The position numbers and the translations under genes are program-made. Below, in pieces: positions 27,457 through 43,685 of a DNA stretch of 64,000 bases. The notes beneath the pieces were generated by a model. The model searched no databases and was not told the DNA's origin. It worked only from the letters and a program-made list of their open reading frames with translations. How positions within the stretch are numbered: position 1 is the stretch's first letter; each line of letters opens with the position of its first letter. Source of the stretch: a candidate division FCPU426 bacterium (lineage in GTDB: Bacteria; Oederibacteriota; JAAXVQ01; JAUVAV01); NCBI GenBank assembly GCA_040756875.1, contig JBFLYH010000002.1, forward strand, positions 981,246 through 1,045,245. The letters are read 5' to 3'.

Positions 27457-29621
27457 CGGGGCGTGCGGGTTACCTGCAGGGGCGAACGCGAACGGCGGGC
27501 CGATCCCATGGGCGCCACTTTCAGGTTCACCTGATACCGGCCGGCCGGAAGGCCCGGCGGCACTGCCAGCTGATAAATTTCCTCCAGATTGCCGGGCGCG
27601 TAGGCCCACGAGGGCGGGGGCCAGTAACCCAGGCGCCGGACCGCTTTCCAGGGCCGGCGCAGGGTTCCGGAAACGGACGGCTGGATCCAAAAATACACCA
27701 CCCATTGTTCGCCGTTGGGCGCGGGCAGAAATTGCCAGCGCAAGGAAACAGTCAGCACGGAATCCAAACCCTCCGAAGCGGCCGGCGGCTGCACGCCGGC
27801 TGCCACCAGGCGCATGGGTCCTGCCGTCTCCAGCGGAGACGGGGTTTTGGCCGGGCCCAGGCCTGATTCGCCCCAGACCGGGCCGCGGGCCACGGGAAAC
27901 GGTTCAACGTGATAGGCTGAAAACCGCCGGTTGGTTCCGTCCGGGCCGTTCACTAAATAGCCTCCATCCTCCATTGCCAATAATCTGAAGCTTTGCAGAA
28001 AGTATTCCCAAGCCGGAGAGGACAGTTTGGGCCTGGCCAAGACCACCACCGGTTTTCCCGCCGACACCTGTTGGCCGAGTTCCCGGTTCCAGGCGGCCCA
28101 TTTGCGCCAGGCCTTGCCTTTTTCCGCAGCGCGGGCGCCGGCGGCAGCCGGCCAGGGTTTGGACAGAGGTTGCAGCAGCAAATCCGGACGCACGCCTTTG
28201 CGGGTTTGCAGCAACAAAGGCAGCAGCCCCTGCTGCATGTCCGGAAAAACCACGATGGCGGATTCGGGCAGGCTTTTCATCCCGCGGCCGACTTCGTCCA
28301 CGTCGGAAATCCGGGGGCCGGATGCCGCTTCCGGCCATCCCTGCAGCAACATCAGCACCGGGGCCAGGGCCACCAGGCTCATGCCGATCCAGGTGGGCTT
28401 GAGACGCATGCCCAGGCTCAAGCGGTGGTCGCCCTGCCCCAGCACGGTCAGGACATACTGCAGGGCTTCCAAACCCAGCCAGGGGCCGGCCATGGCCAGC
28501 CCCAGCATCACGTCCTCGCTTTGCCGCAGGGGCAGCAGCAGCAAACCCGCCAGGGAACAGACGATCAGAAGCGCCAGGAACTGGCGTCCCGGCAGGTTGA
28601 TTTCCTCGGTTACGCGCAGCGGGGTTTTGAGAAACAACCGGCGCAGGTTGGCGGCCAGCCCCAGGCCGGCCAAGGCCCAGGAAAAAACGGGAAAATGCCG
28701 CAGCCAGACGGACCAGACCGTCGACCAAGGTCCCTGCGGGGCAGCAGGGGGGGACCCGTGCGACTGGAGCTGGGTCAGGAAGCCCTGCCAGGCGTGAAGG
28801 TTCAGGGCCGGGCCGAGCGGCTGGAAATGATCCGTGTTGATGAAGACGTGATCCGCAGTCAAGCGCAGGGGCAGGTACAGATAGGGCAGCAAGGCGCCAA
28901 CCAGGGCCGCGGCCACGGCCTGGCCGTACATCCAGGCCTGCACGCGTTGGCGGGGGAGCCCCAGCACCAACCCCAGGAGCAGGGCCGAGGCTGCCCAAGG
29001 AAGCAAGCCCAGGGATTGGGAAGCCGTGGCGCCCAATAAAGCGGCCCAGGCCGTGAGGCGCCAGACGGACACCGGGTGACGGCCGGGCGTGAGCAGACCC
29101 AGCGTTAAGTACACGCCAACAGCCAACAGCCAAAGGTGGAAGGACATCGGGCCGATGCGCAAGCCGGCCTGCCAGACCGGAAAAAACCAAAAACAGGACA
29201 AAGCCGTGGCCAGGGAGACGAAGGGCGGAAACAACAGGCGGCGCGCGATCAAATAAACGAACAGGCAGGTTCCGGAGCCGAACAGCAGGCTGAGCAGGCG
29301 GTACCGCCACAGCTCTTCGCCCAAGGGCAGCACGACGGACAGGAACTTGGCGCTGAGCAGATACAACGGATAGCCCGGAAAACGGACCACGCCCAGCGTG
29401 CTCGCGCCCAGCACCCATTCGGCCTGGCCGCCGGCCCACGAGCTTGTGGCCAGCCAGGGCCAGGAAGTCAGCAAGGGCAGGAAAAAAGCCAGCAGGCCGA
29501 ACCAGCCGTCGGGTTTAAGGAAGAAAATCGTCTGATCCACCCGTTCCGGGCGAGAGGGTGCGTACACGAGCAGCAAGCCTCCGCGGAGCCTGAGCCGGTG
29601 ACGGCGTACGCTCCAGAGCAT
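27369..29621 (-). CDS. DUF2723-like polytopic membrane protein (GT-C-fold glycosyltransferase-like)
   Basis: Only supported minus-strand gene; 750 aa, N-terminal half strongly hydrophobic with LGVVRFPGYPL motif; start uncertain (alternative GTG at 29567 with GGAGG SD). Confidence 0.6.
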   Translation of the reverse strand: MLWSVRRHRLRLRGGLLLVYAPSRPERVDQTIFFLKPDGWFGLLAFFLPLLTSWPWLATSSWAGGQAEWVLGASTLGVVRFPGYPLYLLSAKFLSVVLPLGEELWRYRLLSLLFGSGTCLFVYLIARRLLFPPFVSLATALSCFWFFPVWQAGLRIGPMSFHLWLLAVGVYLTLGLLTPGRHPVSVWRLTAWAALLGATASQSLGLLPWAASALLLGLVLGLPRQRVQAWMYGQAVAAALVGALLPYLYLPLRLTADHVFINTDHFQPLGPALNLHAWQGFLTQLQSHGSPPAAPQGPWSTVWSVWLRHFPVFSWALAGLGLAANLRRLFLKTPLRVTEEINLPGRQFLALLIVCSLAGLLLLPLRQSEDVMLGLAMAGPWLGLEALQYVLTVLGQGDHRLSLGMRLKPTWIGMSLVALAPVLMLLQGWPEAASGPRISDVDEVGRGMKSLPESAIVVFPDMQQGLLPLLLQTRKGVRPDLLLQPLSKPWPAAAGARAAEKGKAWRKWAAWNRELGQQVSAGKPVVVLARPKLSSPAWEYFLQSFRLLAMEDGGYLVNGPDGTNRRFSAYHVEPFPVARGPVWGESGLGPAKTPSPLETAGPMRLVAAGVQPPAASEGLDSVLTVSLRWQFLPAPNGEQWVVYFWIQPSVSGTLRRPWKAVRRLGYWPPPSWAYAPGNLEEIYQLAVPPGLPAGRYQVNLKVAPMGSARRSRSPLQVTRTPRYFPACEFTVVAPGSTAAPSNRPIVVPGK

Positions 29622-29702: not shown

Positions 29703-29904
29703 TATATTGTATCTGATTCACTGTCCGAGTGCCGGATGGCGCTCAGTCCGATTATACCCGCCCGGCGCCTTGAGCCAAGCATTAAGTTGCTGGACGCCCA
29801 TTTTTCTTCTCTATCTCGCCGCAAGCCGGAGGCAGGGCAGGGACGGGAGCCGGGTCTGACGAAAATCATTCATTTAAGCTGGTCGGCGTCAAAGGCTTTA
29901 AAAG

Positions 29905-29933
29905 TTGACAAGGCCATGACCCCCGACTATAAT
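29905..29933 (+). promoter_or_regulatory. consensus sigma70-type promoter TTGACA-17-TATAAT
   Basis: Perfect -35 (29905-29910), 17-nt spacer, perfect -10 (29928-29933); about 280 nt upstream of the YYY gene. Confidence 0.55.
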
Positions 29934-30212: not shown

Positions 30213-32618
30213 GTGACCGGTATTTTCGTGTGGTGGTTGTTGATCACAATCATGGGGCTGGCTGTTGTCCCGATCGCGTTCCGGGTTTTTCCGTTTCTTC
30301 CTGACCGGGGATATGCGTTTTCCAAACCCTTGGGGCTGGTGCTGGTCGGGCTGCTGACCTGGTGGATCGGGCAGGTGCATTTTTCAGTCCTTACCATTCT
30401 CCTGGCATTCGGGCTGATCGCCGGCCTGTCGTATTGGCTGTGGGTCCGCTCGGCCGCGGAGTTCCGTTCCCTGCTGTCCGAGCGGCTCGGGTTGATCGTG
30501 GCGGTGGAACTGTTTTTCGCGGTTCTCTTCCTCCTTTTCTGCTGGTTCCGCATGTACAACCCGGACATCATCGGCACCGAAAAATTCATGGACCTGGCGT
30601 TTCTCAATTCGCTCTCCCGCGCCACGTCGTTTCCGCCGCCGGACCCGTGGATGGCCGGCTCGAAATTTTTCATCAGCTACTATTATTTCGGCTACCTGCT
30701 CATGGCCATTCTGCTCCGCCTGTCGGCCGTGGCGCCGGCCGTGGGCTTCAATCTTTCCCTGGGCATGCTGTTCGCGCTCGCCGGGATCAGCACGTTCGGC
30801 GTGCTGTACAACCTCACGCGGCGCCTGAGCGCGGGCTTTGGCGGCTGGGCGCTGATCTACCTGATCGGCAATCTCGACGGGTTCAGGCAGGTGCTCGCCA
30901 CCAAAAGCATCGCCAGCTTCAACTGGTGGACGCCGTCGCGCGTCATCCCCGACACCATCAACGAGTTTCCGTTTTTCTCCTTTCTCCTCGGGGACATGCA
31001 TCCGCACATGCTGTCCATCCCCGTGGTCATGCTGACCCTGGGGTTCACGCTGAACCAGCTCAAATCCATGAACCGCGAGCCGAACTTCCGCGAGCCGGAG
31101 CAGCTTGCGACTACGCTGCTCTGGGGCCTGCTGATCGGGGCGCTGGGGTTCGCCAACAGCTGGGACCTGCCCACCACCTTCGGGCTGGCAGGGGCGGCGT
31201 TTCTGCTGCAGCAGTTGCGTTTCAAGCCGCGCCTGGCTGACCTGCCCTGGCGGCAGTGGGGGCTGGGCCTGGCGCTGATGCTGGGCGCCATGTTCGTGCC
31301 GTACCTGCCCTTTTATTTCCACTTCCACAGCCAGGCCAAAGGCCTTGCCTGGACCACGCAGAACACCCGGTTGGGGGATTTTCTGCTCCTCTTCGGCGTG
31401 TTCGCCTATCTCGGCCTGACCTTTCTCCTGGCCCGATACCATGCCTGGTTTTTGGCCGTGCTGTCCCGTCCGCAGGCCGCCTCCGGGGAAGGCAAGGCCG
31501 CCAAAGCCAAAGCCAGCCGTTTCTGCCCGCAGTGCGGGCATACGCTGCGCGAAGGCAAGCGCATTTGCGGCCAATGCGGGTACCAGACGGCGGGCGGAGG
31601 GTCTGAACAGGAATCTTCGCTCCTGTTGCGGCCCGTGGAAGAAACGCCGGAATGGCTGCGCGGGCTGTTCCTGTTCCTGCTGCAGCCCGTGGCGCGCTGG
31701 CGCCAGGGCCGGGGCGCGGCCCTGATCACAGCCGGCGTGCTCGCGGCGGCGGTCGGCGGCGCGCTGGTGAAAGGCCTCTTTTTCTCCACGCCGGGCAATC
31801 CCGCGCCCGTGTTCCTCGGCATCATGATTTTCGCGCTGGCGGCCGCCACCCTGCTGCTGTTCGCCCGCGTGGACAAGCCGGAGACAGTGTTCGCCCTGCT
31901 GCTGCTGGCCACGGCCCTGGCGCTGTTCATGGGCTGTGAAGTGCTGCATATCAACGACACCTTCAATCCGCCGCTGGACAGGATGAACACGGTTTTCAAG
32001 TTTTACTACCAGGCCTGGTTCCTGCTGGGCATCGCCGGCGTCTACGGCGTTTTCTGGACCTGGAAGTATTCGCTGCGCCACGCGAACCTCAAGGTGGTCT
32101 GGCTGTCGGGCCTGGCCCTGCTGCTGGCCGCGAGCCTGGTTTATCCTTACGCGGCCGCGGGCGTCAAGACCAACCGGTTTGCCACCCTCCCGACCCTGGA
32201 CGGCTCGGCATACCTGAATCAGGCGTACCCGGCCGACCGCGCGGGCATCGAATGGCTGCGCCGTTCGGTGGCCGGCAATCCCGTGGTGCTGGAAGCCACG
32301 GGCGGCGAATATACGGATTTTGCCCGCGTGTCCACGTTCACGGGCCTGCCCACGGTCCTGGGCTGGGCCGGCCACGAACTGCAGTGGCGCGGGAACTACG
32401 ACGAACCCGGCCGGCGGATTCCGGACATCGACACGCTCTACGGCTCTTCGGACGTGGCGGCCACTCAGGCCCTGCTGGACAAATACCAGATTACTTACGT
32501 TTTTGTCGGCACCCTGGAGCGGCAAAAATACCCGGAAGAAGCGCTGGCGAAATTCACCCAGTTGATGGACGTGGCGTTCGAACACCCCGGCGGCGTGCGG
32601 ATCTACCGCCGGCGGTGA
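30213..32618 (+). CDS. YYY-motif polytopic membrane protein (DUF2298 / TIGR03662-like) with inserted zinc ribbon
   Basis: GTG start; 801 aa; FISYYYFGYLL motif; CPQCG...CGQCG insertion; many TM helices. Confidence 0.65.
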   Translation: MTGIFVWWLLITIMGLAVVPIAFRVFPFLPDRGYAFSKPLGLVLVGLLTWWIGQVHFSVLTILLAFGLIAGLSYWLWVRSAAEFRSLLSERLGLIVAVELFFAVLFLLFCWFRMYNPDIIGTEKFMDLAFLNSLSRATSFPPPDPWMAGSKFFISYYYFGYLLMAILLRLSAVAPAVGFNLSLGMLFALAGISTFGVLYNLTRRLSAGFGGWALIYLIGNLDGFRQVLATKSIASFNWWTPSRVIPDTINEFPFFSFLLGDMHPHMLSIPVVMLTLGFTLNQLKSMNREPNFREPEQLATTLLWGLLIGALGFANSWDLPTTFGLAGAAFLLQQLRFKPRLADLPWRQWGLGLALMLGAMFVPYLPFYFHFHSQAKGLAWTTQNTRLGDFLLLFGVFAYLGLTFLLARYHAWFLAVLSRPQAASGEGKAAKAKASRFCPQCGHTLREGKRICGQCGYQTAGGGSEQESSLLLRPVEETPEWLRGLFLFLLQPVARWRQGRGAALITAGVLAAAVGGALVKGLFFSTPGNPAPVFLGIMIFALAAATLLLFARVDKPETVFALLLLATALALFMGCEVLHINDTFNPPLDRMNTVFKFYYQAWFLLGIAGVYGVFWTWKYSLRHANLKVVWLSGLALLLAASLVYPYAAAGVKTNRFATLPTLDGSAYLNQAYPADRAGIEWLRRSVAGNPVVLEATGGEYTDFARVSTFTGLPTVLGWAGHELQWRGNYDEPGRRIPDIDTLYGSSDVAATQALLDKYQITYVFVGTLERQKYPEEALAKFTQLMDVAFEHPGGVRIYRRR

Positions 32619-32702
32619 TCGCTGTGTATTGCCCCGGTGAGGAGCTCTCCGGGGTGACGTTGCCGGAACGACAAATTGAGTGAATATCGAAGGAGGCTCG
32701 GC

Positions 32703-34691
32703 GTGAACTGCCCGAACTGCGGCGCGGAAAACCCCGCCACCAACCTGTTCTGCGACTCGTGCGGGACCAAGCTGGTCAAACGAGACGCAGAAAAGCAGAA
32801 GAAAAAGCACATTCCCGAAGGGAGGGGCGTTCAGGTGAACACCCCTGCTCAAACCAAATCCTACCTGCCGGCCGAACCCGTAAAGCCGGCGTTGTCCCTG
32901 ACCGCCGTTCCGCTCGAAACCCTGGCCTGGGCCGTGGTCTTCGCGGTGGGCGCCTGGCTGCTGTTTTTCCAACTGGGCATGAAGCCCCTCCACCACGACG
33001 AGAGCCTGCACGCCTATTACGCCTGGGAGCTGTTCAAGGGCATGGGCTACAAGTACAACCCCATGATGCACGGCCCCTTCCTGTTCCACGCCAATGCCCT
33101 CATGTATTTCCTGTTCGGCGCCTCGGATTACACCTGCCGCATCATGCCCGCGCTCGCGGGCCTGACGGTGCTGGTGGTCACGTACTTCCTGCGCCCCTAT
33201 CTGGGCCGGACCGGCGCCCTGTTCACGGCGGCCATCATCGCCCTGTCGCCGTCCTTTACGTACTTCGGCCGGTTCATCCGCAACGACATTTACATTGCCG
33301 CGGATTCCATGCTCATGATTTACGGTTTTTTCCGCTATCTGGACACGCGCAAGCCCCGCTTTCTCTACCTGGCCGCCGTCGGCCTGGGCCTGGCGTTTTG
33401 CACCAAGGAAGTCACCTACATCAACGGCGCGATTTTCGTGACGTTCATGTTTTTCCGCTGGCTGTGGGAGTACACCATGCGCCCCGGCGCGGGCGAGAGC
33501 CGCTTCCTGCCGGCGCTGCAGGACCTGCTTAAACAGAGGAAGCCGCTGTGGGTTTCAGCCGGCATATTCTTCGGCCTGGTGCTCGTGCTCTACACCACCG
33601 TGTTCACCAACCCCAAGGGCTTCCTGGACGCGTTCACCGCTTCGCTGACCTATTGGCTGGGGCAGCACGAGGTGCAGCGCGGCAGCCAGCCGGTCTACTT
33701 CTACGCCGGGTTGATCCCCCTGTACGAAACCCTGACCACCCTGGGCGCGATCGGCGCCCTGGTTTACTACAGCTTCCTCAAGGACCGGGCCCACCGCGTC
33801 TGGCGCCTGTCCGCCTACCTGATCCTGGCCGCGGCCTGGTGGCTGTTCGCCTCGCAGGGCAACGAGACCTTCGGCCTGATATTCTCGCTGCTGCTCGTCA
33901 CGCTGGGCGTGGGTATGCTGGCGTATTTTTCGTTCGCCGAGGGCAATACGTTCGTCACGTTCCTGCAGTTGTGGACCCTGGCGGCTTTTTCGGATTATTC
34001 CTTCGCGGGCGAGCGCATGCCCTGGCTGATCCTCCACCCCCTGCTGCCCATGACGCTTTTGACCGGGTTTTGGCTGGGGGAACTGTGGAACCGCTTCCAG
34101 CGCCAGCGGGCCTGGCTGCTCGCCGTCTTTACCGCGGGCGCCGTGCTCATGCTGCACAACGCCAGCCTGGTGAACTTCTACGGCGGCGGGGCGAACCCCG
34201 CGGAGCTCCTGGTGTACGTGCAGTCCTCGACCGACGTCAAGCAGGTGGTGCGGCAGCTCACCAATATGTCCAAGCGCCTGACCGGCGGGCTGGAGATGAA
34301 GATCACCTGCGAGGATTACTGCTCCTGGCCTTTCGCCTGGTACCTGCGCGATTTCAAGTTCGTGGGGTATCCCAAGTTTACGGCCACCCAGTCGCCGGGC
34401 TCGATCGAGGAAAACCCCGTGATCATCACCGGCGTGGAAATGGCCGCGCCCGGGCACGATGACCGCGTGGCCGAGCTCCTGGCGGAGAAGTACGTGGCCC
34501 AGCGCTACAAATTGCGCGTGTGGTGGGCCCCGGACAGCCGCGCGTTTTTTGACGACACCTTCGGCGGAAAACTGAAGAAGATCTGGAAATTGGTGGTGTA
34601 CAAGGAGCCGTGGAGCGGGCTCGGGTCCTACGACATGATCGTGTACGTGCGCAAGGACCTGGCCCATTTGTACTGGAGCCACGCGGAGTAA
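32703..34691 (+). CDS. TIGR03663-like membrane protein (PMT/ArnT-like GT-C N-terminus) with N-terminal zinc ribbon
   Basis: Start moved to GTG 32703 (AGGAGG SD 6 nt upstream); CPNCG...CDSCG; DE dipeptide (HHDESLH) and HGP tripeptide (MMHGPFLFH). Confidence 0.6.
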   Translation: MNCPNCGAENPATNLFCDSCGTKLVKRDAEKQKKKHIPEGRGVQVNTPAQTKSYLPAEPVKPALSLTAVPLETLAWAVVFAVGAWLLFFQLGMKPLHHDESLHAYYAWELFKGMGYKYNPMMHGPFLFHANALMYFLFGASDYTCRIMPALAGLTVLVVTYFLRPYLGRTGALFTAAIIALSPSFTYFGRFIRNDIYIAADSMLMIYGFFRYLDTRKPRFLYLAAVGLGLAFCTKEVTYINGAIFVTFMFFRWLWEYTMRPGAGESRFLPALQDLLKQRKPLWVSAGIFFGLVLVLYTTVFTNPKGFLDAFTASLTYWLGQHEVQRGSQPVYFYAGLIPLYETLTTLGAIGALVYYSFLKDRAHRVWRLSAYLILAAAWWLFASQGNETFGLIFSLLLVTLGVGMLAYFSFAEGNTFVTFLQLWTLAAFSDYSFAGERMPWLILHPLLPMTLLTGFWLGELWNRFQRQRAWLLAVFTAGAVLMLHNASLVNFYGGGANPAELLVYVQSSTDVKQVVRQLTNMSKRLTGGLEMKITCEDYCSWPFAWYLRDFKFVGYPKFTATQSPGSIEENPVIITGVEMAAPGHDDRVAELLAEKYVAQRYKLRVWWAPDSRAFFDDTFGGKLKKIWKLVVYKEPWSGLGSYDMIVYVRKDLAHLYWSHAE

Positions 34692-34698
34692 AACGACA

Positions 34699-34722
34699 CC
34701 CTCCCCTTTGAGGGGGAGGGGG
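34699..34722. repeat. CCCTCCCC/GGGGAGGG palindrome
   Basis: CCCTCCCC-TTTGA-GGGGGAGGGGG directly after the stop at 34691. Confidence 0.6.
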
Positions 34723-34747: not shown

Positions 34748-35704
34748 ATGCGTCAGCAGGAAAAAGTTGCGGCGATTGTGTTGGGTGCCAGCGTCGTGGT
34801 TTTGGCGGTCGCCATTTTCTTCGGTTTGCAGCGCGGCCGCGACGGCAACGCCAAACCCGGCGGCCAGGCCAACCCCATGGCCGGCGGCGACCGGGGCAAG
34901 GCGTCCGGGCAGTTGTGGGACCCGCGCGGTGTGGCCGTGGACGCCAAGGGCTTCGTGTACGTGGTGGATTCGAGCAACCACCGCATCCAGAAGTTCGACG
35001 CCGAAGGCAAGTTCGTGGCCAAGTGGGGGCAGGAAGGGCAGGGCGACGGCGAGTTCAAGACGCCGGGCGGCATCGACGTGGGGCCGGACGGGAACGTGTA
35101 CGTGGCGGACACCTGGAACCACCGGATACAAAAGTTCGACAACCGGGGCAAGTTCCTCAAGCAGTGGCCGGGCGAGGGCGGGTTCTGGGGGCCGCGTGAC
35201 GTAGCCGTGGATTCCAAAGGCTTCGTGTACGTGACGGACACGGGCAACCGCCGCATCCAGAAGTTCACCGGCGACGGCCAGTTCGTCAAGATGTGGGGGC
35301 AGAAAGGCTCGGGCCCCAACGACTACGACGAGCCCTTCGGCATTAAAGCCGACGACAAGGATTTGCTGTATATCTGCGACCGCCTCAATTTCCGCATTCA
35401 GGTCTGCGACACCGAGGGGCGCCTGGTCCGTTCCTGGCCCGTGGACGGCTGGCAGAAGGAACAGTTCTTCATGGAGCCCTACCTCTCCATCGACAACCGC
35501 CGCGACCGGGTGTACGTGACCGACCCGACCAAGCACCGCGTGCTGGTGTACGACCGCCAGGGCGGATTCAAGCAGCACCTGCTGCAGGACCCGGCCACCC
35601 AGCAGGCGTTTTCCACGCCCCTGGGCGTGGCGGTGAACGAGGAAACCGGCATGATTTATATCACGGATATGACGGCCAACCGGCTGTATAAAATCCAGCC
35701 TTAG
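34748..35704 (+). CDS. NHL-repeat beta-propeller protein, N-terminal membrane anchor
   Basis: Repeated blocks GVAVDxxGxVYVxDxxNHRIQKF; N-terminal TM helix. Confidence 0.75.
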   Translation: MRQQEKVAAIVLGASVVVLAVAIFFGLQRGRDGNAKPGGQANPMAGGDRGKASGQLWDPRGVAVDAKGFVYVVDSSNHRIQKFDAEGKFVAKWGQEGQGDGEFKTPGGIDVGPDGNVYVADTWNHRIQKFDNRGKFLKQWPGEGGFWGPRDVAVDSKGFVYVTDTGNRRIQKFTGDGQFVKMWGQKGSGPNDYDEPFGIKADDKDLLYICDRLNFRIQVCDTEGRLVRSWPVDGWQKEQFFMEPYLSIDNRRDRVYVTDPTKHRVLVYDRQGGFKQHLLQDPATQQAFSTPLGVAVNEETGMIYITDMTANRLYKIQP

Positions 35705-35715
35705 GAGGGATGAAC

Positions 35716-36828
35716 ATGGCCACCAAACGCAAACCAAGCCGGACGCAAACCAAGCCGGCGGCGCGCAAATCCGCGGCGGCGCGCAAGCCTGCTGGCGCCG
35801 CACTCAAAACCAGCGCGGCCAAAGCCGCCGCCGGACGCAAACCCGCCCACCGCGAAAGCCATAAAACCGCCTCCGGCGGCAACCGCGGCCTGGTGTTTTT
35901 CGGCGCGATCGCCGTGCTGGTCGTGGCCATGGCCGTGGTCGCAAAACTCAGGCAGGGGCCGCCGGTGAAGCTCCTGCCCGCGGAGGTGCTGGGCACTTAC
36001 ACCGCGGCGGACAACGCCGCCGGCGCCCTGTCGTCGCCGCGCGGGATCGCCGTGACGCGTGAAGGGGAAGTGGTGGTGGCTGATCTGGGCAACCACCGGA
36101 TCGTGGCTTTTGCGCCGGACGGCAGCGTGGCCGACACCTGGGGCCGCAAGGGCACGGCCGCCGGCGAGTTCAACGAGCCGTCGGGCGTGGCCGTGGACAG
36201 CCGAGGCGACTTCTACGTGGCCGACACCTGGAACGGACGCATCCAAAAATTCTCCCCCCGCGGCGAGTACTTCGGCGAAATCACCTCGAAAACCGGGAAC
36301 TTCTATTCGCCGCGCAACGTGGCCGTGGACAGCCATGGGTTCGTGTACGTGGCGGACACGGGCAATTCCTGCGTGAAGAAATTCGACACGGACGCCAACC
36401 TGGTGAAACGCTGGGGCGAATACGGCTCCGGGCACGACCGGTTCCAGGAAACCTTCGGCCTGGCCGTGGACGCGGCCGGCCAGGTGTACGTGGGCGACGC
36501 GGGCAACCGCCGCATCAAAATTTACACCAGCGACGGCAAGTTCCTGCGCGACCTGCGGGTCAAGGGCTGGCAGAGCGGGGTGGGCTGGCCCATGCTGGCG
36601 CTGGACGCGCAGGGCCGGGTTTACGCCACGGACGTGCAGCACAACATGGTATGGATTTACAGCCGCGAGGGCAAGTACCTGGGGAGCTTCGGCAACCAGC
36701 CGGGCAAGGAGCTGTTCTCCTCGCCGCTGGGGATCGCCATCGGGCCGGACGGCAGCGTGTACGTGTCGAACATGAACCGCGGCGAGATTCTGAAACTCAA
36801 AGGCTTGGCCCCGGAGCCGCCGAAATAG
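35716..36828 (+). CDS. NHL-repeat beta-propeller protein, basic N-terminus and membrane anchor
   Basis: Start at ATG 35716 (SD spacing); NHL blocks (GIAVTREGEVVVADLGNHRIVAF...). Confidence 0.75.
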   Translation: MATKRKPSRTQTKPAARKSAAARKPAGAALKTSAAKAAAGRKPAHRESHKTASGGNRGLVFFGAIAVLVVAMAVVAKLRQGPPVKLLPAEVLGTYTAADNAAGALSSPRGIAVTREGEVVVADLGNHRIVAFAPDGSVADTWGRKGTAAGEFNEPSGVAVDSRGDFYVADTWNGRIQKFSPRGEYFGEITSKTGNFYSPRNVAVDSHGFVYVADTGNSCVKKFDTDANLVKRWGEYGSGHDRFQETFGLAVDAAGQVYVGDAGNRRIKIYTSDGKFLRDLRVKGWQSGVGWPMLALDAQGRVYATDVQHNMVWIYSREGKYLGSFGNQPGKELFSSPLGIAIGPDGSVYVSNMNRGEILKLKGLAPEPPK

Positions 36829-36876
36829 GGCGCGCCCGGGCATCGTGGTCATCCCCGAGGGATGAGGAGGGACGGC

Positions 36877-37923
36877 ATGGCAACAGCAAGCGACAAACGG
36901 AAGCCGAAAAAGACAGCGGCCCAGGGAAGCAAAGCGGCCACCCGGGCCAGACAGGCCAAAAGCCAGGCGGCGATTCCCGCCCCGGTTGCGGCCTCCGCGC
37001 CCGCGGCGCCGCCCCGGGCTGCCAAACCGGGCTTGCCGCACGGAATCATTCTGGGCGTTTTGCTGGCCCTGGTGGTTTTGGTCAGCGTGGAGGTCGTGAT
37101 CCTCATGAAGGACAAGGCGGACCGGAAGCGCATTCTGCGCGTGGTGGAAGTGGTGCCGGAACGCGGCGGGCCGCCGGACATGCCGGGCAAGTTCTGGGGG
37201 CCGTACCAGGTCAAGGTCAACGAACAGGCGGGCCGCTTGGCCCTGGTCGACCACGCGTTCAACAAGGTCGTGCTGTGGGACCTGGCCACCAAGAAGCACG
37301 TGGTCGACGTCAACGCCGCCTTGCTGGGACGGGAGCAGTTCGTTCCAAAGGACGTCGATGTGGCCGATGACGGCGACTATTACATCCTCGACCACTCTGA
37401 CATGACGGTCAAACGGTTCTCGGCCCAGAACCAGCTGGTCCAGCAGTGGAAGATTCCGGAGAGCGTCAGCCTGACGGCCGGCAAGGACCGCGATGTGTAC
37501 GTGCTGGACGGCAGGGCCCAGGAGATCGTCCATTATCAAAACGACGGCACCGAACTCGGGCGTTTCGGCAAGGGTAAGTTGAAAAACGGCCTGTTGATGG
37601 ACACGGATGAGGCCGGCAACATCTACGTGGTGGATTCCGGCTACAACGGCATGGTGGTTTTCTCGAAGGCGGGCAAGCACCTGTATTCCTGGCCGATCAA
37701 GGAAGTGAAGCCCTTGCAGATGTCGCGCATGGCGGCGGTCAACAACCAAGTGTATTTCTACGACCTGGTCAACAACAACGGGATCATCAGAGTGTACACC
37801 CCCAAAGGCCGCCTGGCGTGGGATATCGGCCCGCAGCGCACAGAATCATTTGACGTCGGCCGCTCGGGGACGGTGTACATGTCCGGCAACGACGGCATCG
37901 TCATTCAGCAAATCGAGAAGTGA
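36877..37923 (+). CDS. membrane-anchored beta-propeller-like protein (divergent NHL-like paralog)
   Basis: Start at ATG 36877 (RBS GAGGAGGGA); N-terminal basic region and TM; repeated YVLD/YVVD blocks. Confidence 0.5.
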   Translation: MATASDKRKPKKTAAQGSKAATRARQAKSQAAIPAPVAASAPAAPPRAAKPGLPHGIILGVLLALVVLVSVEVVILMKDKADRKRILRVVEVVPERGGPPDMPGKFWGPYQVKVNEQAGRLALVDHAFNKVVLWDLATKKHVVDVNAALLGREQFVPKDVDVADDGDYYILDHSDMTVKRFSAQNQLVQQWKIPESVSLTAGKDRDVYVLDGRAQEIVHYQNDGTELGRFGKGKLKNGLLMDTDEAGNIYVVDSGYNGMVVFSKAGKHLYSWPIKEVKPLQMSRMAAVNNQVYFYDLVNNNGIIRVYTPKGRLAWDIGPQRTESFDVGRSGTVYMSGNDGIVIQQIEK

Positions 37924-37937
37924 GGCCCAGGTAGCCA

Positions 37938-40900
37938 GTGGCGGATAAAATCAAAGCGGCCTTCGAGGCCTTGAAAAAAAGCGGAATCAATGTTTCTTTG
38001 CGGTTCGTGTGGCTGGCGCTGGCCGTCGGGCTGATTGGCCTGGGCCAGGTCAATTTCTTCTCGCGCAATCTGGCCGCGGGCATGGGTCTGACCCTGCTGG
38101 GCGCCGTCGTGCTCCTGCTGGCGGCGGGCGAGAGCGGCAAACAGGCCGCCCTCCTGCAGCGGGCGGGGAAGTGGTTTGGCCGGGCGGCTGAGCGCTTTTC
38201 CGCGTTCGCCCGCGCGCGCCAAAAGGCCGAGGATCTCGCCACCGGAACCGCCGGCCAGCCGGCCGCCAAGACGAATTGGAAACCGCTGAAAACCCAGTTC
38301 GAGGAAACCCGGCGCTCCTGGCTGGCCTTTGCCGAGGAAACCACGTTCACGGCGCCGAAGAACCTGGTCATGATCCTCGGCATTCTCTTGATTCTGGCCG
38401 GCCAGCCCTTCCTCGTCGCCGAGAAGTTCGTCCTGGCCCTGATCCTCATCATTCCCGGCTTGTACCTGCTGGTCAACGTCATTTTCGCCCCCCAGGAACG
38501 GTACGTCATCGGCCGGCTCGACCACATCATCCGGACCGTTTTATTCCTGATTCCGGGCGTGGGCTTGATCATCCTGGGATGCATGATTCATTTCCAGGCG
38601 GTCAGCCTGAGCCTCCCCCGCGAAGCCCTGGGCTTGGGGCTGAACGCGCTCGGCATTTTCATCATCTTCTCCCTGTTTCCGAGGATCATCCCCGATTCGT
38701 TCCCTGAGTCAGGCGATCCGGTGGATCAGGTGACCGGCCGGGCCGCGAACCGGACGCAGGTATTCATGAAAATCGGACTGGTGGCCCTGGCCCTGGTGTT
38801 TTTCCTGGCTTCCAAGCATTATGCCAACCCGGCTACCCTGAACCTTTCCGCGCTGATGGCCCTTCTGTTTCTCACGGCGATGAGCCTGTCTTTTCCCTGG
38901 AGCGCCGAACCTCGCGACCAAACCAGCGGCGAAAACATCGTCCTGAAATGGCTGGTGAAATACCTGCGCCTGGCGGCTTTCGGCCTGGGCCTGTATTGGG
39001 CCTACCGCGGGCAGGTGCTGATCTCGCACGAACAGCTTTATCCGGGGCTGTACCGGTTCCTGGCCGCGGCCATCGCCATGTGGATCGCCCTGCGCGAACC
39101 GGACCCCAAGTACGTGGATGAATTGAAGGAAAAGCCCCTGGCCTGGTACTGGGAGGCGCTGGCCCTGGTGGCCATCCTGTCGGCCGCCACCTGGGTCCGT
39201 GTCCATCTCCTGAAGGACATACCTTACGGGATCGAGTGCGACGAGGCGGGCGCCGGCGCGCACGCCGTCGATGTTTTGCAGAACCACTTCAGTTCGCTGA
39301 CGATCCATCCCAGCGGACGCCCGCTGTTCATGCTGCTGGACAAAGTGGTCACCATCCGCTTCTTCGGCATCGACAACATCGGGATGAAGCTGGGCGCAGC
39401 CATCTGGGGGACCGCGGGCGTTTTCTGCGTTTATCTCATGACCCGGTTTTTGTTCGGCACGCGCGCGGCCCTGGCCACGGCAGCCCTGATGGCCTGCTCG
39501 CGCTGGCACATCCATTTTTCGCGCTACGGCTGGGCGAACACCCTGATGCTGGTGCTCCAGATCACGGGATTCTATTTCATCGCCAAGGGCATCCAGACGC
39601 GGAACAAATGGTTCTTTTTTCTCGCGGGCGTGGGCCTGACCCTGTCCATCCACACCGAGACCGCGGCGCGCATGGTGCCCTTCATGTGCCTGGGCCTGCT
39701 GGTGTACTTCGTCCTGTTTTACAAGCGGTTTTTCCGGCGCAATTGGCAGACCCTGCTGGTGTTCCTGCTCGGGGTGTGGCTGGCCGGCGCCAGCCTGTTC
39801 CTGTTTTGGGTGAAGCAGCCGCGCTACCTGTTCAACCGCGTGTACGAAGTGTCGGTGTTTTCCGGCGACGCCAACGCGCCTCGGAACCTGGTCAAGGGGC
39901 TGGTCGAAAGCACCAAGCTCAGCCTCACGCAGATGAACTGGCACGGGGACACCCGGACCCGCCACAACGGCGGCCTTTCGGGCGAGCCGGTGCTCGATTT
40001 CTGGTCGGCCATCCTCTTCGCCCTGGGGTTCGGCTTTTCGCTGTATTACTGGAGGCGGTTCCGATACACCATACTGCTAATGTGGTTTTTCGGGTCCATG
40101 GCCGCCTCGATCTTCGCCCTGGAGGCGCCGCAATCCCACCGGGCCTTTGGCGCGCTTCCGCCGATTTTCATGCTGATGGGCGCGTTCATCGACCGCTCCC
40201 GCAGGCTGCTGCGGGAGACGCTGGGCAAGCCCGGCACCCTGGCCGGCGGCCTGGTGCTCCTGCTGCTCCTGGTTCCCATCGCCAAGATCAATTACAAAAA
40301 ATACTTCGACGCGTATCCGGGGTTCGACACGGCCTGCACGGCCGCGGCCAAGTACATGGGGCGCGTCTGGCCGAAGGCGGAGCAGGTCATCATGTCCGCT
40401 TATTTGTGGATCGGCCATCCGCCCTTCGAGCTGTACGCCCGCGGGATATCCGGCCACTTTTACTTTGCGGCCTCCGAAGCGGTTCCGTTCCGCCAGCAGA
40501 CCGACCGGGATGTGAATTACACCCTGATCCTGGAATATCCGGAGATCATGCCGACCATCCAATGGTACTATCCGGAAGGCGAATATTCCGAGGAGACGCA
40601 CGTCCGCTACGGGCTGCAGTACCGCGGCTGGGGCGTGAAACACGAGATCATCCAAAAATACCGCGGCCTGAACGCTTCGTACTGGTCGAATCCCTATTGG
40701 GCCGGGGAGCCGAAACTGCGGCGCAAGGACGCGGATTTGAACCTGACCTTCGACCAGACCACCTGGCCCTGGAACGGCCCGGGGTCGGTGAAATGGGAAG
40801 GGACCGTGTTCATCCCCCGCGAAGGGAAGTACGTTTTCTACCTGTACGGCACCAATGAGGTCGAAGTCAAGGTCGGCTCCCAGGTGCACCTCCGCGCCGG

Positions 40901-41537
40901 CAACAAGCAGGAACAAACCTACGAAACGTATATGGCCGGCGGCTTGCACCGGCTGGACGCCCGGGCGGTTCACAGCGCCCCGGGCGAAAGGATCCTGTTC
41001 GCCTGGAGCTGCAGCCAGGATGTGCCGTACTACCTCTATGACGAAGCGCACCAGAACCGGTTTGCCAAGGAGCCTGTCCCGAACACGCACCTGTTCACCT
41101 ACCCCGAACCCAAAGGGCTCCTGGCCACTTTTTATTACAAACCGGACTGGACCGGCGGGATCGCCCGGCAAGTGGTGGAACCCGCCCTGTTCTACTTGTG
41201 GATGGGGCCGCCGTACGGCCTTAACATGCCCTTCTCAGCGGATTGGAAAGGCTGGATCGACATCGAAAAACCCGGCACGTACCAGTTCGGCGTGGACTGC
41301 AGCGGGTACTCGGATGTCACGATCGACGGCATCCCGGTCGTCGTCCAGGGCGAGCCGCCTTTTTCCGGCGTTCCCCGCCTGCAGGGCCGCAATTCAGTCC
41401 AGCTGGCGGCCGGGCGCCATCCGGTGACTGTCCGCTGGTCGCAGCAGTACGGGCTGTTGTTCAGGTTCTGGTGGGTTCCGCCCGGCCAAAAGAAGGAAAT
41501 CGTTCCCGTTTGGGTTCTGACGCCTCAGGACAAGTAA
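37938..41537 (+). CDS. large GT-C-like membrane protein with two C-terminal PA14-like domains
   Basis: 1199 aa; polytopic N-terminal two-thirds with acidic loop motif GIECDEAG; C-terminal PA14-like beta-sandwich patterns. Confidence 0.55.
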   Translation: MADKIKAAFEALKKSGINVSLRFVWLALAVGLIGLGQVNFFSRNLAAGMGLTLLGAVVLLLAAGESGKQAALLQRAGKWFGRAAERFSAFARARQKAEDLATGTAGQPAAKTNWKPLKTQFEETRRSWLAFAEETTFTAPKNLVMILGILLILAGQPFLVAEKFVLALILIIPGLYLLVNVIFAPQERYVIGRLDHIIRTVLFLIPGVGLIILGCMIHFQAVSLSLPREALGLGLNALGIFIIFSLFPRIIPDSFPESGDPVDQVTGRAANRTQVFMKIGLVALALVFFLASKHYANPATLNLSALMALLFLTAMSLSFPWSAEPRDQTSGENIVLKWLVKYLRLAAFGLGLYWAYRGQVLISHEQLYPGLYRFLAAAIAMWIALREPDPKYVDELKEKPLAWYWEALALVAILSAATWVRVHLLKDIPYGIECDEAGAGAHAVDVLQNHFSSLTIHPSGRPLFMLLDKVVTIRFFGIDNIGMKLGAAIWGTAGVFCVYLMTRFLFGTRAALATAALMACSRWHIHFSRYGWANTLMLVLQITGFYFIAKGIQTRNKWFFFLAGVGLTLSIHTETAARMVPFMCLGLLVYFVLFYKRFFRRNWQTLLVFLLGVWLAGASLFLFWVKQPRYLFNRVYEVSVFSGDANAPRNLVKGLVESTKLSLTQMNWHGDTRTRHNGGLSGEPVLDFWSAILFALGFGFSLYYWRRFRYTILLMWFFGSMAASIFALEAPQSHRAFGALPPIFMLMGAFIDRSRRLLRETLGKPGTLAGGLVLLLLLVPIAKINYKKYFDAYPGFDTACTAAAKYMGRVWPKAEQVIMSAYLWIGHPPFELYARGISGHFYFAASEAVPFRQQTDRDVNYTLILEYPEIMPTIQWYYPEGEYSEETHVRYGLQYRGWGVKHEIIQKYRGLNASYWSNPYWAGEPKLRRKDADLNLTFDQTTWPWNGPGSVKWEGTVFIPREGKYVFYLYGTNEVEVKVGSQVHLRAGNKQEQTYETYMAGGLHRLDARAVHSAPGERILFAWSCSQDVPYYLYDEAHQNRFAKEPVPNTHLFTYPEPKGLLATFYYKPDWTGGIARQVVEPALFYLWMGPPYGLNMPFSADWKGWIDIEKPGTYQFGVDCSGYSDVTIDGIPVVVQGEPPFSGVPRLQGRNSVQLAAGRHPVTVRWSQQYGLLFRFWWVPPGQKKEIVPVWVLTPQDK

Positions 41538-41539
41538 GC

Positions 41540-42817
41540 ATGGCCGCGGAACGGAAGGAAGGCTTGGTCGGCGTCTCCCTGCTGCTGTTCCTGCTGACCA
41601 TGGGGAACAGCGTCTGCGGCTTTGCGCTCCACGCCGTGGCCAGCCGCGTGCTGGGCCCGGAGGACTATGGCGCCTTCGTAAGCCTGCTGGCCCTGCTGAT
41701 GATCCTGGCCGTGCCCAGCCAGGCGGTGCAAATGATCGTCGCCAAACAGATCACGCTCGAGTTGATCCAGAACCAGCTGCGCCGCGCCGTCGTCCTGACC
41801 TGGCAGGCGGTGCGCTGGTCGGCGGCCGCCGGAATGCTGTTGTGGCTGGCCGTGACGCTCGCCCTGCCGGTCCTGAAATCCTTCCTGCACCTGCCTTCCG
41901 CGTCCCCCCTCCTGGCGGTCGGCGCCGCGATCGTCCTGACGCTGATCACCCCGGTGCTGCGCGGTTTTCTGCAAGGCACTCAGCGTTTCCAGGCTTTGGG
42001 CTGGAACTTCTTTTTAGAGGGCGTGGGGCGTCTGGCCTGGGGCGCACTGTTTCTGCTGGTGGGGTGGGGCGTCCTGGGCGCGGTCCTGGCCAGCGCCGCC
42101 GGCGCCTTGACGGCCGCGCTGATCGCCGTCTGGCTGCTGGGCGCCGCAGCCAAGGGCCTGGACCGGAACGGCCCGGAGCAGCCGGCCGCCCGGACGTCGC
42201 TGGGGCTGCAGGATTACGGCTGGCTGGTGCTGGTCACCATGGCCGCGTTTTTCGCCCTGTCCAACCTGGACGTGCTGATCGTCAAACACCTCTTTCCGCA
42301 GGCCGACGCCGGATATTATTCGGCCGGTTCTCTGATCGGCAAGGCGTTTCTGTTCCTGCCCTACACCTTTGCCCAGGTCCTGTTTCCGAAAGCCAGCCGC
42401 CACCATGCCCTGGGCGAGAGCACCCTCTCCCTGTTGAACCGCAGCCTGCTGTACACGGCCGCGGCCCTGCTGCTGGGGATGATTGCGGTCTACGCGCTGG
42501 CGCCGGTCCTGCTGTCGGTGCTGTTCGGGCCGGAATACAACAATCCCACCACCCTGCGCATGATCCGCTATTTCGGCGCGGCCATGACGCCGCTGGCCCT
42601 GGTATACGTGATGATGCAGTACAGCCTGGCGCTTAAAAACGCCGAGTTGTCCCTGCTGATGCTGGCGGATCTTCCGGTCTTCATTATCCTGCTCATGACT
42701 CTGCCCCGCAGCCTGGAAGGCGTACTCCTGGCCATGGGCTTGAATTTCCTGATCCTGGCGGCGGCCGGCTACGCGGCCATCCGGGCCAAGGCGCAGCCCC
42801 TGGCCGCGAAAGCCTAG
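41540..42817 (+). CDS. polysaccharide/oligosaccharide flippase-like membrane protein (Wzx/MOP-like)
   Basis: ATG 41540, 3 nt after the previous stop; 425 aa, ~12 predicted TM helices. Confidence 0.5.
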   Translation: MAAERKEGLVGVSLLLFLLTMGNSVCGFALHAVASRVLGPEDYGAFVSLLALLMILAVPSQAVQMIVAKQITLELIQNQLRRAVVLTWQAVRWSAAAGMLLWLAVTLALPVLKSFLHLPSASPLLAVGAAIVLTLITPVLRGFLQGTQRFQALGWNFFLEGVGRLAWGALFLLVGWGVLGAVLASAAGALTAALIAVWLLGAAAKGLDRNGPEQPAARTSLGLQDYGWLVLVTMAAFFALSNLDVLIVKHLFPQADAGYYSAGSLIGKAFLFLPYTFAQVLFPKASRHHALGESTLSLLNRSLLYTAAALLLGMIAVYALAPVLLSVLFGPEYNNPTTLRMIRYFGAAMTPLALVYVMMQYSLALKNAELSLLMLADLPVFIILLMTLPRSLEGVLLAMGLNFLILAAAGYAAIRAKAQPLAAKA

Positions 42818-42830
42818 AGGGAGGCGGCGC

Positions 42831-43685
42831 ATGGACCCCCTTCGCCCGCAGGATGCCGGCGTGGACGTCACCCTGGTCATTCCGGCTTATAATGTGGAAA
42901 CCCGCATCGTGCCCCTGCTCCAGTCGGCCCGGGACCAGCAGGGAGCGAAGGTTGAGACCCTGGTGGTCGACGATGCGTCGACCGACCGCACGGCCGAGGT
43001 GGCCGAGCACTGGGGCGCGCGGGTCGTGCGCAACGAGGTCAACCTGGACCGCTCGGAGGCCCGCAACGTGGGGGCCCGGGCGGCGCGGGGCAAATACATC
43101 TGGTTCATCGATTCGGACATGGAACTGACCCCGGGCATCGCGCAGGCGGCTTGGGAGGCCTGCGAACGCGAACAGCTGGACGGGCTGGTCATTCCGGAGC
43201 GCATCCGGCCGGCGAACCTGTGGGCCAAGAGCCGCAACCTGGAATTTATCATCAACGACAGCGACGAGGAGCGCTTTGTCCTGCGCTTCGTCCGCCGGGA
43301 CTTCTTCCTGCAAACCAAGGGGTTCGACGCCAGCCTGATCGCGGCCGAGGATTACGACTACCACCGCCGCATGCTGGACCATGGCGCCCGTTACCGGCTG
43401 CTGACAGGCTGGCACGTCTGGCACCACGAGCTGACCTCCATGCGGCGGGTGCTGAAAAAGTACTATTACTACGGGCTGACCATGTCGCTGTACATCCGGC
43501 GGCACAAGCAGCTGGCCGTGCGGCAGTTCTCGTTTCCCCGGCGCGGCTACCTTAAGCGGCTGGACCTGCTGCTGGGCCATCCCTGGCTGACGGCGAGCCT
43601 TTTTTTCTTCAAGACCCTCCAGTACGCGGCCGGCTTGGCGGGCATTGTGATGGCCTGGCTGGGATGGGACCGGGCGAAAAAATGA
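42831..43685 (+). CDS. glycosyltransferase family 2
   Basis: VTLVIPAYNVE...LVVDDASTDRT...DSD motifs. Confidence 0.75.
   Translation: MDPLRPQDAGVDVTLVIPAYNVETRIVPLLQSARDQQGAKVETLVVDDASTDRTAEVAEHWGARVVRNEVNLDRSEARNVGARAARGKYIWFIDSDMELTPGIAQAAWEACEREQLDGLVIPERIRPANLWAKSRNLEFIINDSDEERFVLRFVRRDFFLQTKGFDASLIAAEDYDYHRRMLDHGARYRLLTGWHVWHHELTSMRRVLKKYYYYGLTMSLYIRRHKQLAVRQFSFPRRGYLKRLDLLLGHPWLTASLFFFKTLQYAAGLAGIVMAWLGWDRAKK

Follow-up and report, generated by a model that had tools for sequence, protein, structure and literature searches.

In a 64,000-nucleotide stretch of a candidate division FCPU426 genome (assembly GCA_040756875.1, contig JBFLYH010000002.1, positions 981,246 to 1,045,245; hereafter the window, in whose own numbering all positions are given), three consecutive plus-strand genes, N1, N2 and N3 (34748–37923), encode membrane-anchored β-propellers of the NHL type. 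The trio lies between genes for two GT-C-type membrane proteins, an Agl23-like protein upstream and a protein with PMT_2 and PA14 domains (PMT_2-PA14) downstream. We put the probability that the propellers are subunits or partners of these neighbouring GT-C glycosyltransferases at roughly 60%. The most likely assignment gives N1 and N2 to the Agl23-like enzyme, and N3 to the PMT_2-PA14 enzyme, as subunits on the extracytoplasmic side.

This reading draws on other lineages, in which propeller and enzyme are a single protein. A search with the Agl23-like protein returned at least 21 homologue clusters (860–1,014 residues), annotated as Chloroflexota or Anaerolineae, in which PMT_2 and NHL are found in the same protein, an architecture that is already visible in public domain annotations. 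When eight fused proteins were scanned directly against Pfam, all eight had PMT_2 at the N terminus and NHL at residues ~660–1,010. The domain order is the gene order of the window (GT-C, then NHL), and no transmembrane (TM) helix separates the NHL domain from the soluble domain that ends the GT-C part. N1 aligns with the fused NHL domains at 40–47% identity and N2 at 35–42%, in both cases across the whole propeller (~280 residues) and to the C terminus. Motifs beyond the NHL consensus are common to N1, N2 and the fused domains: DTWN in blade 2, F.GPR...DTGN in blade 3 and GW....PY.A.D in blade 5. N3 is ~25% identical to the fused NHL domains of the Agl23 family, in partial alignments that do not run end to end.

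The association was also assessed in 80 metagenome loci (887 kb) that were retrieved by patterns from two GT-C motifs only, a selection unbiased towards NHL, and annotated with local hidden Markov models; as the best matches to one query, these loci probably over-represent a few phyla. Sixty-one Agl23-like genes had enough downstream sequence to be assessed. In 42 of them the propeller is encoded in the same stop-free open reading frame (ORF), in 4 it is the next gene and has its own TM anchor, and the remaining 15 have no propeller nearby. NHL thus directly follows the Agl23-like GT-C part, fused or as the next same-strand gene, in 46 of 61 loci, as it does in the window, where N1 begins 56 nt downstream. 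The 887 kb contain only seven other NHL matches, mostly second copies of the same system, and a DUF2298 gene is usually found directly upstream of the Agl23-like gene. Furthermore, three loci (L015, L056 and L084) encode PMT_2, PA14 and NHL in one ORF of 1,243–1,365 residues that directly follows a fused Agl23::NHL gene and is homologous to residues ~405–1,196 of the window PMT_2-PA14 protein (E = 3e-86 to 8e-36).

Because both GT-C enzymes that flank the trio carry such a propeller covalently elsewhere, at their C termini, the fusions constitute Rosetta-stone evidence that propeller and enzyme work together, probably in physical contact. The proposal of an earlier note on this DNA, made from the sequence alone, that the propellers are partners of the neighbouring transferases is strongly supported by these observations. 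We rejected the possibility that the fusions are gene-calling artefacts, given that GT-C and NHL occupy the same stop-free ORF in 42 independent contigs and that public annotations list fused proteins.

Several other searches were less informative. An exact-sequence look-up of N1 in an assembly collection gave no match, and orthologues were used instead; a single-protein scan of genome contigs yielded eight loci, all from the close clade. The 6,729 matches to N1 were mostly generic multi-repeat NHL proteins, which outscored the true counterparts and can also reach 32–45% identity to N1. A profile of N3 run against 1.84 billion representatives was likewise dominated by giant multi-NHL proteins; ~11 clusters resembled N3 end to end, and no fusion of N3 was seen among the matches.

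The metagenome loci also contained variants of the arrangement. Locus L022 (6880–13030) has two tandem fused Agl23::NHL genes, and Chloroflexota-type loci often have two tandem DUF2298 genes and a shorter, NHL-less Agl23-like paralogue before the fused gene; the system is prone to duplication. Such duplications were seen in L022, L016, L024, L025, L037, L039, L056, L071, L085 and L091. In eight other loci (L057, L059, L065, L070, L073, L075, L078 and L079), the Agl23-like gene is shorter (~500 codons), there is no NHL gene, and the next gene downstream is a DUF2298 gene in convergent orientation; the characterised Agl23 may belong to this subgroup, which would then be the archaeal type.

The three ORFs are present as the earlier note had placed them, on the plus strand and with a coding-type distribution of GC over codon positions; third-position GC is 0.84–0.88, the pattern expected of coding regions in ~63% GC sequence. 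N1 (34748–35704; 318 residues) comprises a TM anchor (residues 7–25) and a six-bladed NHL propeller. N2 (35710–36828; 372 residues) begins with a basic, Ala/Pro/Lys-rich cytoplasmic tail, followed by a TM anchor (residues 60–78) and a six-bladed NHL propeller. N3 (36862–37923; 353 residues) likewise has a basic cytoplasmic tail, a TM helix (residues 60–87) and a six-bladed NHL propeller, here divergent. The Pfam NHL family (PF01436; gathering cut-off 20 bits) matches N1 at 143.5 bits (E = 4.8e-43) and N2 at 139.8 bits (E = 7.3e-42), whereas N3 exceeds the cut-off only marginally (22.6 bits, E = 1e-4). The structure of N3 was modelled for that reason. The AlphaFold2 model (predicted local distance difference test score (pLDDT) 87.3) consists of the helix at residues 60–87 and then ~24 strands, and its best Foldseek matches in the PDB are the NHL domains of Brat, Thin and TRIM2/3/71 and the Pizza6 designs (E ~1e-15). 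The folds of N1 and N2 were judged from sequence matches, N3 being the one of the three with a predicted model; N1 aligns with Pizza and TRIM71 at 1e-66 to 1e-55 (Pizza, 1e-66) and with the PknD sensor domain (1rwi) at 1.8e-25. Each protein contains six blade motifs spaced ~45 residues apart (for example, GFVYVVDSSNHRIQKF) and a single hydrophobic helix near its N terminus (19-residue Kyte–Doolittle maximum 2.8–3.1). N1 and N2 are 40% identical over 267 residues, and N3 is ~25% identical to either. The description of the trio as N-terminally anchored, repeated NHL proteins with a more divergent third member is therefore borne out, including by the Pfam search that the earlier note had proposed, in which all three score above the cut-off. 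No NHL ORF other than these three was found in the 64-kb window.

From the spacing to Shine–Dalgarno-like sequences, the true start of N2 is probably at 35716 (MATKRK...) and that of N3 probably at 36877 (MATASDK...); a public protein that is 100% identical to N3 (P0121; 348 residues) begins at the start proposed here. The tails of N2 and N3 before the helix are 59 residues long and rich in Lys, Arg, Ala and Pro, with 16 and 13 basic residues, respectively, against 1–2 acidic ones. Because the tails are so strongly basic, the positive-inside rule places the N2 and N3 propellers outside the cytoplasm. N1 has only six residues before its hydrophobic segment, which looks like a signal anchor. These topologies were derived from homology and charge rather than from a dedicated predictor. 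The cytoplasmic parts of N1, N2 and N3 (6, 59 and 59 residues) contain no recognised domain. The best NCBIfam match of all three proteins is ScyF (NF035926), at 171.5, 149.5 and 45.3 bits for N1, N2 and N3, and membership was rejected because these scores are far under the equivalog cut-off of 350.

A comparison of 12 loci from FCPU426, Firestonebacteria and other relatives shows that the trio is an arrangement of two plus one, in which N1 and N2 belong to a conserved block and N3 opens a variable block. The order DUF2298, Agl23-like, N1, N2, N3, PMT_2-PA14 recurs in these groups. The run of Agl23-like, N1 and N2 is never interrupted, and N3 normally adjoins the PMT_2-PA14 gene; about half of the distinct loci have extra genes (methyltransferase, epimerase or others) in the interval from N2 to N3. 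Amino-acid identity to the most similar genomes, those of loci L003–L006, drops sharply past N2. It is 85–86% for the DUF2298 protein, 87% for the Agl23-like protein, 89% for N1 and 79–80% for N2. In the variable block, it is 35% for N3, 54–56% for PMT_2-PA14, 49% for the flippase and 51–52% for the GT4 protein. From 22.3 kb onwards, the DNA of the window is collinear with that of L006 at 72–85% identity; the collinearity ends at position 36817, ~10 nt ahead of the stop codon of N2 (36826–36828), and no part of N3 or of the initial third of the PMT_2-PA14 gene aligns between the two. Relative to L003, L004 and L006, similarity is interrupted over 36817–38963 and resumes only inside the PMT_2-PA14 gene, at 67% as opposed to 83–85% before the break. 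Such a break near the N2 stop codon looks like the recombination boundaries that flank O-antigen-type variable regions.

Compared with L006, the ratio of non-synonymous to synonymous substitution rates (dN/dS) is 0.134 for N1, 0.229 for N2, 0.150 for the Agl23-like gene and 0.155 for the DUF2298 gene, with dS of 0.55–0.60 for all four. By these figures, the constraint on N1 and N2 is as strong as that on the enzymes. An identity of 35% for N3 at that same divergence argues for allele replacement rather than gradual drift.

The pair of an N1-type gene followed by an N2-type gene is retained in loci with split propellers whose Agl23-like proteins are only 34–42% identical to that of the window (L014, L023 and L047), which indicates that the N1/N2 duplication is old. 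In L047, an N3-like gene stands directly before the PMT_2-PA14 gene, and flippase, GT2 and methyltransferase genes lie between it and N2. In a neighbour-joining tree, which is crude and excludes most generic NHL proteins through a coverage rule biased towards the family on which the model was built, separate N1 and N2 clades adjoin the clade of fused domains, and the N3-like protein of L047 branches at the base of the N2 clade. That branching position, together with the 'MAT...KRK' basic tail common to N2 and N3, weakly suggests that N3 derives from an N2-like gene. Of the tandem duplication that had been proposed within the cluster, the part that stands is N1/N2, an old duplicate pair; N3 belongs to a different, fast-changing module.

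The propeller genes are embedded in a long plus-strand cluster. A promoter-like site (TTGACA, 17-nt spacer, TATAAT; 29905–29933, plus strand) matches the consensus at 12 of 12 positions by pattern alone, and from there to ~50.9 kb all genes are on the plus strand with short gaps. For a candidate phylum whose genome has 63% GC, a perfect sigma-70 consensus of this kind is unusual. The site is part of a divergent promoter-like region (29751–29933) between the DUF2298 gene and a minus-strand gene for a TMEM260-like (GT-C-type) membrane protein (27369–29621; 750 residues; Pfam E = 8.5e-07) that keeps the same position in L006 and L009. The DUF2298/TIGR03662 (Chlor_Arch_YYY) gene (30213–32618, plus strand) encodes a polytopic membrane protein with an internal zinc ribbon (Pfam E = 4.5e-109; TIGR03662 569.6 bits, cut-off 300). 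By sequence, a search for solved-structure homologues matched its zinc ribbon alone, so that it is a putative GT-C protein.

The Agl23-family (TIGR03663) gene follows (32676–34691, plus strand), and its product has an N-terminal zinc ribbon, a GT-C fold and a C-terminal α/β domain. With 297.6 bits against a cut-off of 126.25, it is a member of TIGR03663; PMT_2 also matches (E = 2e-13), and the family profile matches ArnT (5ezm) at 9.9e-09. The significant Foldseek matches of its AlphaFold2 model (pLDDT 86.5) are GT-C proteins only: ArnT, which is the best, STT3, ALG9/12, Pmt4 and PglB. In an alignment of 22 sequences, the H-D-E-S motif just past TM helix 1 (H107, D108, E109 and S110) is invariant, as are H132, G133, P134, R155, R199 and R202. 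The zinc ribbons of the DUF2298 protein (residues 437–457) and the Agl23-like protein (residues 12–33) are both on predicted cytoplasmic segments.

Along the series Agl23-like, N1, N2, N3, PMT_2-PA14, the intergenic gaps measure 56, 5, 33 and 14 nt. No convincing plus-strand terminator was found among the three NHL genes, for which reason their co-transcription is likely. Between the Agl23-like stop codon and the start of N1 there is a G+C-rich hairpin with a 9-bp stem (34699–34720, plus strand; CCCTCCCC TTTGAG GGGGAGGG), which is unique in the window (−19.3 kcal/mol, z −2.6). It is followed on the plus strand by an A-rich tract, with no U-run, and may be an mRNA processing or stability element. 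From blastn alignments, a matching hairpin segment seems to be present twice in the corresponding intergenic region of L006.

Downstream of N3, all on the plus strand, are genes for the PMT_2-PA14 GT-C protein (37938–41537; 1,199 residues; Pfam PMT_2 3.3e-09, PA14 1.3e-12), a Polysacc_synt (Wzx-type) flippase (41540–42817; Pfam E = 2.1e-14), cytoplasmic glycosyltransferases of families GT2 (42831–43685) and GT4 (43664–44827) and an S-adenosylmethionine-dependent methyltransferase (44824–45597). A PgfS/ArnC-like GT2 gene (45655–46623) comes next. Its product matches NCBIfam PgfS over its full length (2.6e-71) and ArnC (3.4e-45), both under the equivalog cut-offs (PgfS, 240 bits versus 500); it is likely to be a polyprenyl-phosphate monosaccharide synthase that makes the lipid-linked donor for the GT-C enzymes. 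The cluster continues with genes for a methyltransferase (46627–47265) and a DUF268-like protein (47262–48059), and then for a second PMT_2-PA14 GT-C protein (48137–50878; 913 residues) that has no adjoining NHL gene. The GT-C character previously assigned to the neighbours is confirmed by family matches (TIGR03663 with PMT_2, PMT_2 with PA14 twice, and the TMEM260-like protein), with the DUF2298/TIGR03662 protein as a putative further member.

Directly after the cluster, a plus-strand ORF of 2,259 codons (51157–57936) encodes a protein with a signal-peptide-like N terminus, of which A, L and Q make up 37%; neither Pfam nor NCBIfam gave a match to it. As a candidate coiled-coil protein secreted to the surface, it might serve the cluster as an acceptor. 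Over the last 8 kb of the window (56000–64000), GC drops from ~0.64 to 0.37; an inserted foreign island or a join made during assembly might account for this. The ORFs at 58300–59364, 59457–60050 and 60992–62887 have no Pfam match other than a weak, sub-cut-off one to a T9SS C-terminal sorting domain (E = 1.5e-4).

In solved GT-C enzymes, including ArnT, a soluble domain follows the last TM helix on the outer or lumenal side, and this domain or an added module (MIR, TPR, CBM or PA14) contributes to acceptor recognition. In the Gtr, Arn, Pgf and PMT systems, the GT-C transferases face outward and take polyprenyl-phosphate monosaccharides as donors. In the mechanism that we propose, the PgfS/ArnC-like GT2 would load a sugar on polyprenyl phosphate in the cytoplasm, the lipid-linked sugar would be flipped across the membrane, and the GT-C enzymes would pass it to an acceptor at the outer face. 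N1 and N2 would dock on the Agl23-like enzyme and N3 on the PMT_2-PA14 enzyme, each held by its own membrane anchor. From a place over the active sites of the GT-C enzymes, the propellers could recognise the acceptor, whether protein or growing glycan, or hold it in position, like the accessory domains of other GT-C enzymes; we consider this positioning role, which is assigned by analogy and in view of the fusions, plausible at somewhat less than even odds. The left block (DUF2298, Agl23-like, N1 and N2) would carry out a conserved core step, and the right block, from N3 on, a strain-variable elaboration step. N3 changes along with the transferases and methyltransferases of the variable block, as would suit a glycan ligand that is not the same in every strain.

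Several observations weigh against the subunit reading. The gene for N3 precedes that of its proposed partner, but in the fusions NHL comes at the C terminus; N3 does not adjoin the PMT_2-PA14 gene in L007, and L012 lacks N3. A Goldiibacteriota locus (L010) has DUF2298 and Agl23-like genes with no NHL gene nearby, as do, for Agl23-like genes, the 15 of 61 metagenome loci without a propeller. A subunit role gives no reason for two propellers, N1 and N2, per enzyme, and NHL repeats are so near their consensus that N1 cannot be linked to the fused domains by similarity alone. To our knowledge, Agl23 of Haloarcula hispanica is the only TIGR03663 member that has been studied. One article describes it as a putative flippase of lipid-linked sugars, not a transferase; hexose-P-dolichol is the putative substrate, and in vitro, in proteoliposomes, the protein moves M5GN2-PP-Dol as well (PMC11182771, which cites Lu et al. 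2020 Mol Microbiol 114:762 for Agl22 and Agl23). With a flippase role for the Agl23 family, it would be less clear what an acceptor-binding domain is for.

Other functions of the propellers have to be weighed against a partnership with the GT-C enzymes. It is unlikely, in our estimate, that they are extracytoplasmic six-bladed hydrolases or lyases (of the SMP-30/gluconolactonase, arylesterase, Vgb-lyase or PAL type) that modify the glycan or a lipid-linked intermediate. A fused catalytic domain would fit the fusions as well as a binding domain would, and there are weak secondary Pfam matches to SGL (E = 3e-10 for N1 and 2.5e-16 for N2), Arylesterase, Vgb_lyase and Phytase-like families, as well as a match by sequence between N1 and a peptidylglycine-amidating lyase domain (3fvz, 1e-13). 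However, these matches cover single blades or miss the cut-offs and reflect a common fold: SGL scores 40–60 bits (cut-off 26.3) but over stretches of only ~70 residues, and Vgb_lyase scores 35.7 bits against a cut-off of 50. Conservation across N1, N2 and the fused domains falls mostly on residues of the structural NHL motif and on a few aromatic and Gly positions. No His/Glu/Asp set stands out among them as a shared metal site, as judged from the alignment rather than from mapping on a three-dimensional model, and the His of the N-H-R motif is not conserved in the fused domains. Moreover, the closest solved relatives (TRIM, Brat and PknD) are binding or sensor propellers. Propellers are also common interaction platforms, and three copies beside several membrane enzymes and a flippase would suit scaffold, chaperone or export-assembly factors that act in the manner of TolB or BamB, organising several proteins of the cluster or helping the product across the envelope, away from the acceptor site; one-to-one fusion with particular GT-C enzymes is better explained by a dedicated domain, which makes a general assembly role distinctly unlikely.

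The earlier note had also raised the possibility that the propellers are acceptor substrates, that is, surface glycoproteins glycosylated by the neighbouring GT-C enzymes. In favour are their export, their tether to the membrane and the protein-O-mannosyltransferase-like genes that surround theirs, yet we consider this very unlikely. An enzyme does not normally carry its substrate as a covalent domain, and the propeller is fused to the enzyme in the 42 Agl23-like loci and the three PMT_2-PA14 genes described above. N1 and N2 are under the same constraint as the enzymes, and N1–N3 have no Ser/Thr-rich linker (Ser plus Thr 0–10% in linkers and 7–11% overall). They also lack any N-x-S/T sequon in ~1,040 residues, an absence that alone is not significant given the ~3 expected by chance. 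The poorest candidate is an independent surface sensor like PknD, in which the basic tails would signal inward and the position in the cluster would be incidental. A TM helix with an external NHL propeller is indeed the architecture of the PknD sensor, and N2 and N3 have their 59-residue basic tails, but N1 has no tail, none of the three has a kinase or other output domain, and adjacency to or fusion with GT-C enzymes is conserved across phyla. We hold this option to be very remote and favour propellers that work with the GT-C enzymes beside them.

Among known systems, Agl22/Agl23 shares with the window a TIGR03663 member and a GT2 polyprenyl-phosphate sugar synthase, here the analogue of Agl22, and the theme of making and using lipid-phosphate-linked sugars outside the membrane. 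Unlike archaeal Agl23, the window member keeps the invariant H-D-E-S motif in a GT-C fold and has NHL partners; the literature passages on Agl23 that were available do not mention an NHL propeller. Outer or lumenal accessory domains are familiar in GT-C enzymes, for example the periplasmic domain of ArnT, the C-terminal domains of PglB and STT3, the MIR domains of Pmt1/2, the TPRs of TMTC and TMEM260 proteins and the carbohydrate-binding modules of Emb and AftD. The window enzymes resemble these in having a polytopic core and an outer soluble domain, and the Agl23-like model matches them structurally; the differences are that the domain here is an NHL propeller, that it is a separate membrane-anchored polypeptide and that it occurs in three copies. 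A literature search on DUF2298, TIGR03662, TIGR03663 and GT-C enzymes found no link to an NHL propeller.

As in the sensor domain of PknD from Mycobacterium tuberculosis and the Pizza designs derived from it, one TM helix would tether an external six-bladed NHL propeller in N1–N3. PknD, however, is joined to a cytoplasmic Ser/Thr kinase, whereas N1–N3 have at most a short basic tail, are linked to glycosyltransferases and are not of the PknD type. The Gtr (GtrA/GtrB/GtrV) and streptococcal Pgf (PgfS/PgfM1/PgfE/PgfM2) systems likewise encode a GT2 synthase, a flippase and an outward-facing GT-C enzyme together; they have no propeller component, unlike the window, whose PgfS match is below the equivalog level. 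ScyF of scytonemin biosynthesis is an exported NHL propeller too, but N1–N3 score far below its cut-off, have no PEP-CTERM tail and are not accompanied by scytonemin genes.

The finding is a GT-C system with an extracytoplasmic accessory domain, here an NHL propeller that is split off, anchored, duplicated and spread over a conserved and a variable module. The TIGR03662/TIGR03663 pair is widespread, and its one studied member, which is archaeal, may be a flippase or a transferase; an outward-facing NHL propeller accompanies most of the sampled bacterial members (46 of 61) and also PMT_2-PA14, a second GT-C type. As a soluble, easily expressed domain, the propeller could be used to fish for the acceptor, and the natural split in FCPU426 and Firestonebacteria would allow it to be removed with the enzyme left untouched. 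For annotation, genes labelled 'NHL repeat protein' beside these GT-C genes would be read as enzyme subunits rather than generic surface proteins. More tentatively, and with the odds against it, DUF2298, the Agl23-family GT-C protein and NHL, often with PMT_2-PA14-NHL, might together form a widespread, uncharacterised surface-glycosylation machine in Chloroflexota-type lineages, FCPU426, Firestonebacteria and others, in which NHL recognises the acceptor and to which FCPU426 and its relatives add an exchangeable, O-antigen-like block from N3 on beside the conserved core. If so, N3 would co-vary with the glycan made by each strain. The sharp boundary between conserved and variable sequence at the N2 stop codon suggests strain-level variation of surface glycans in candidate phyla that have no cultured representatives.

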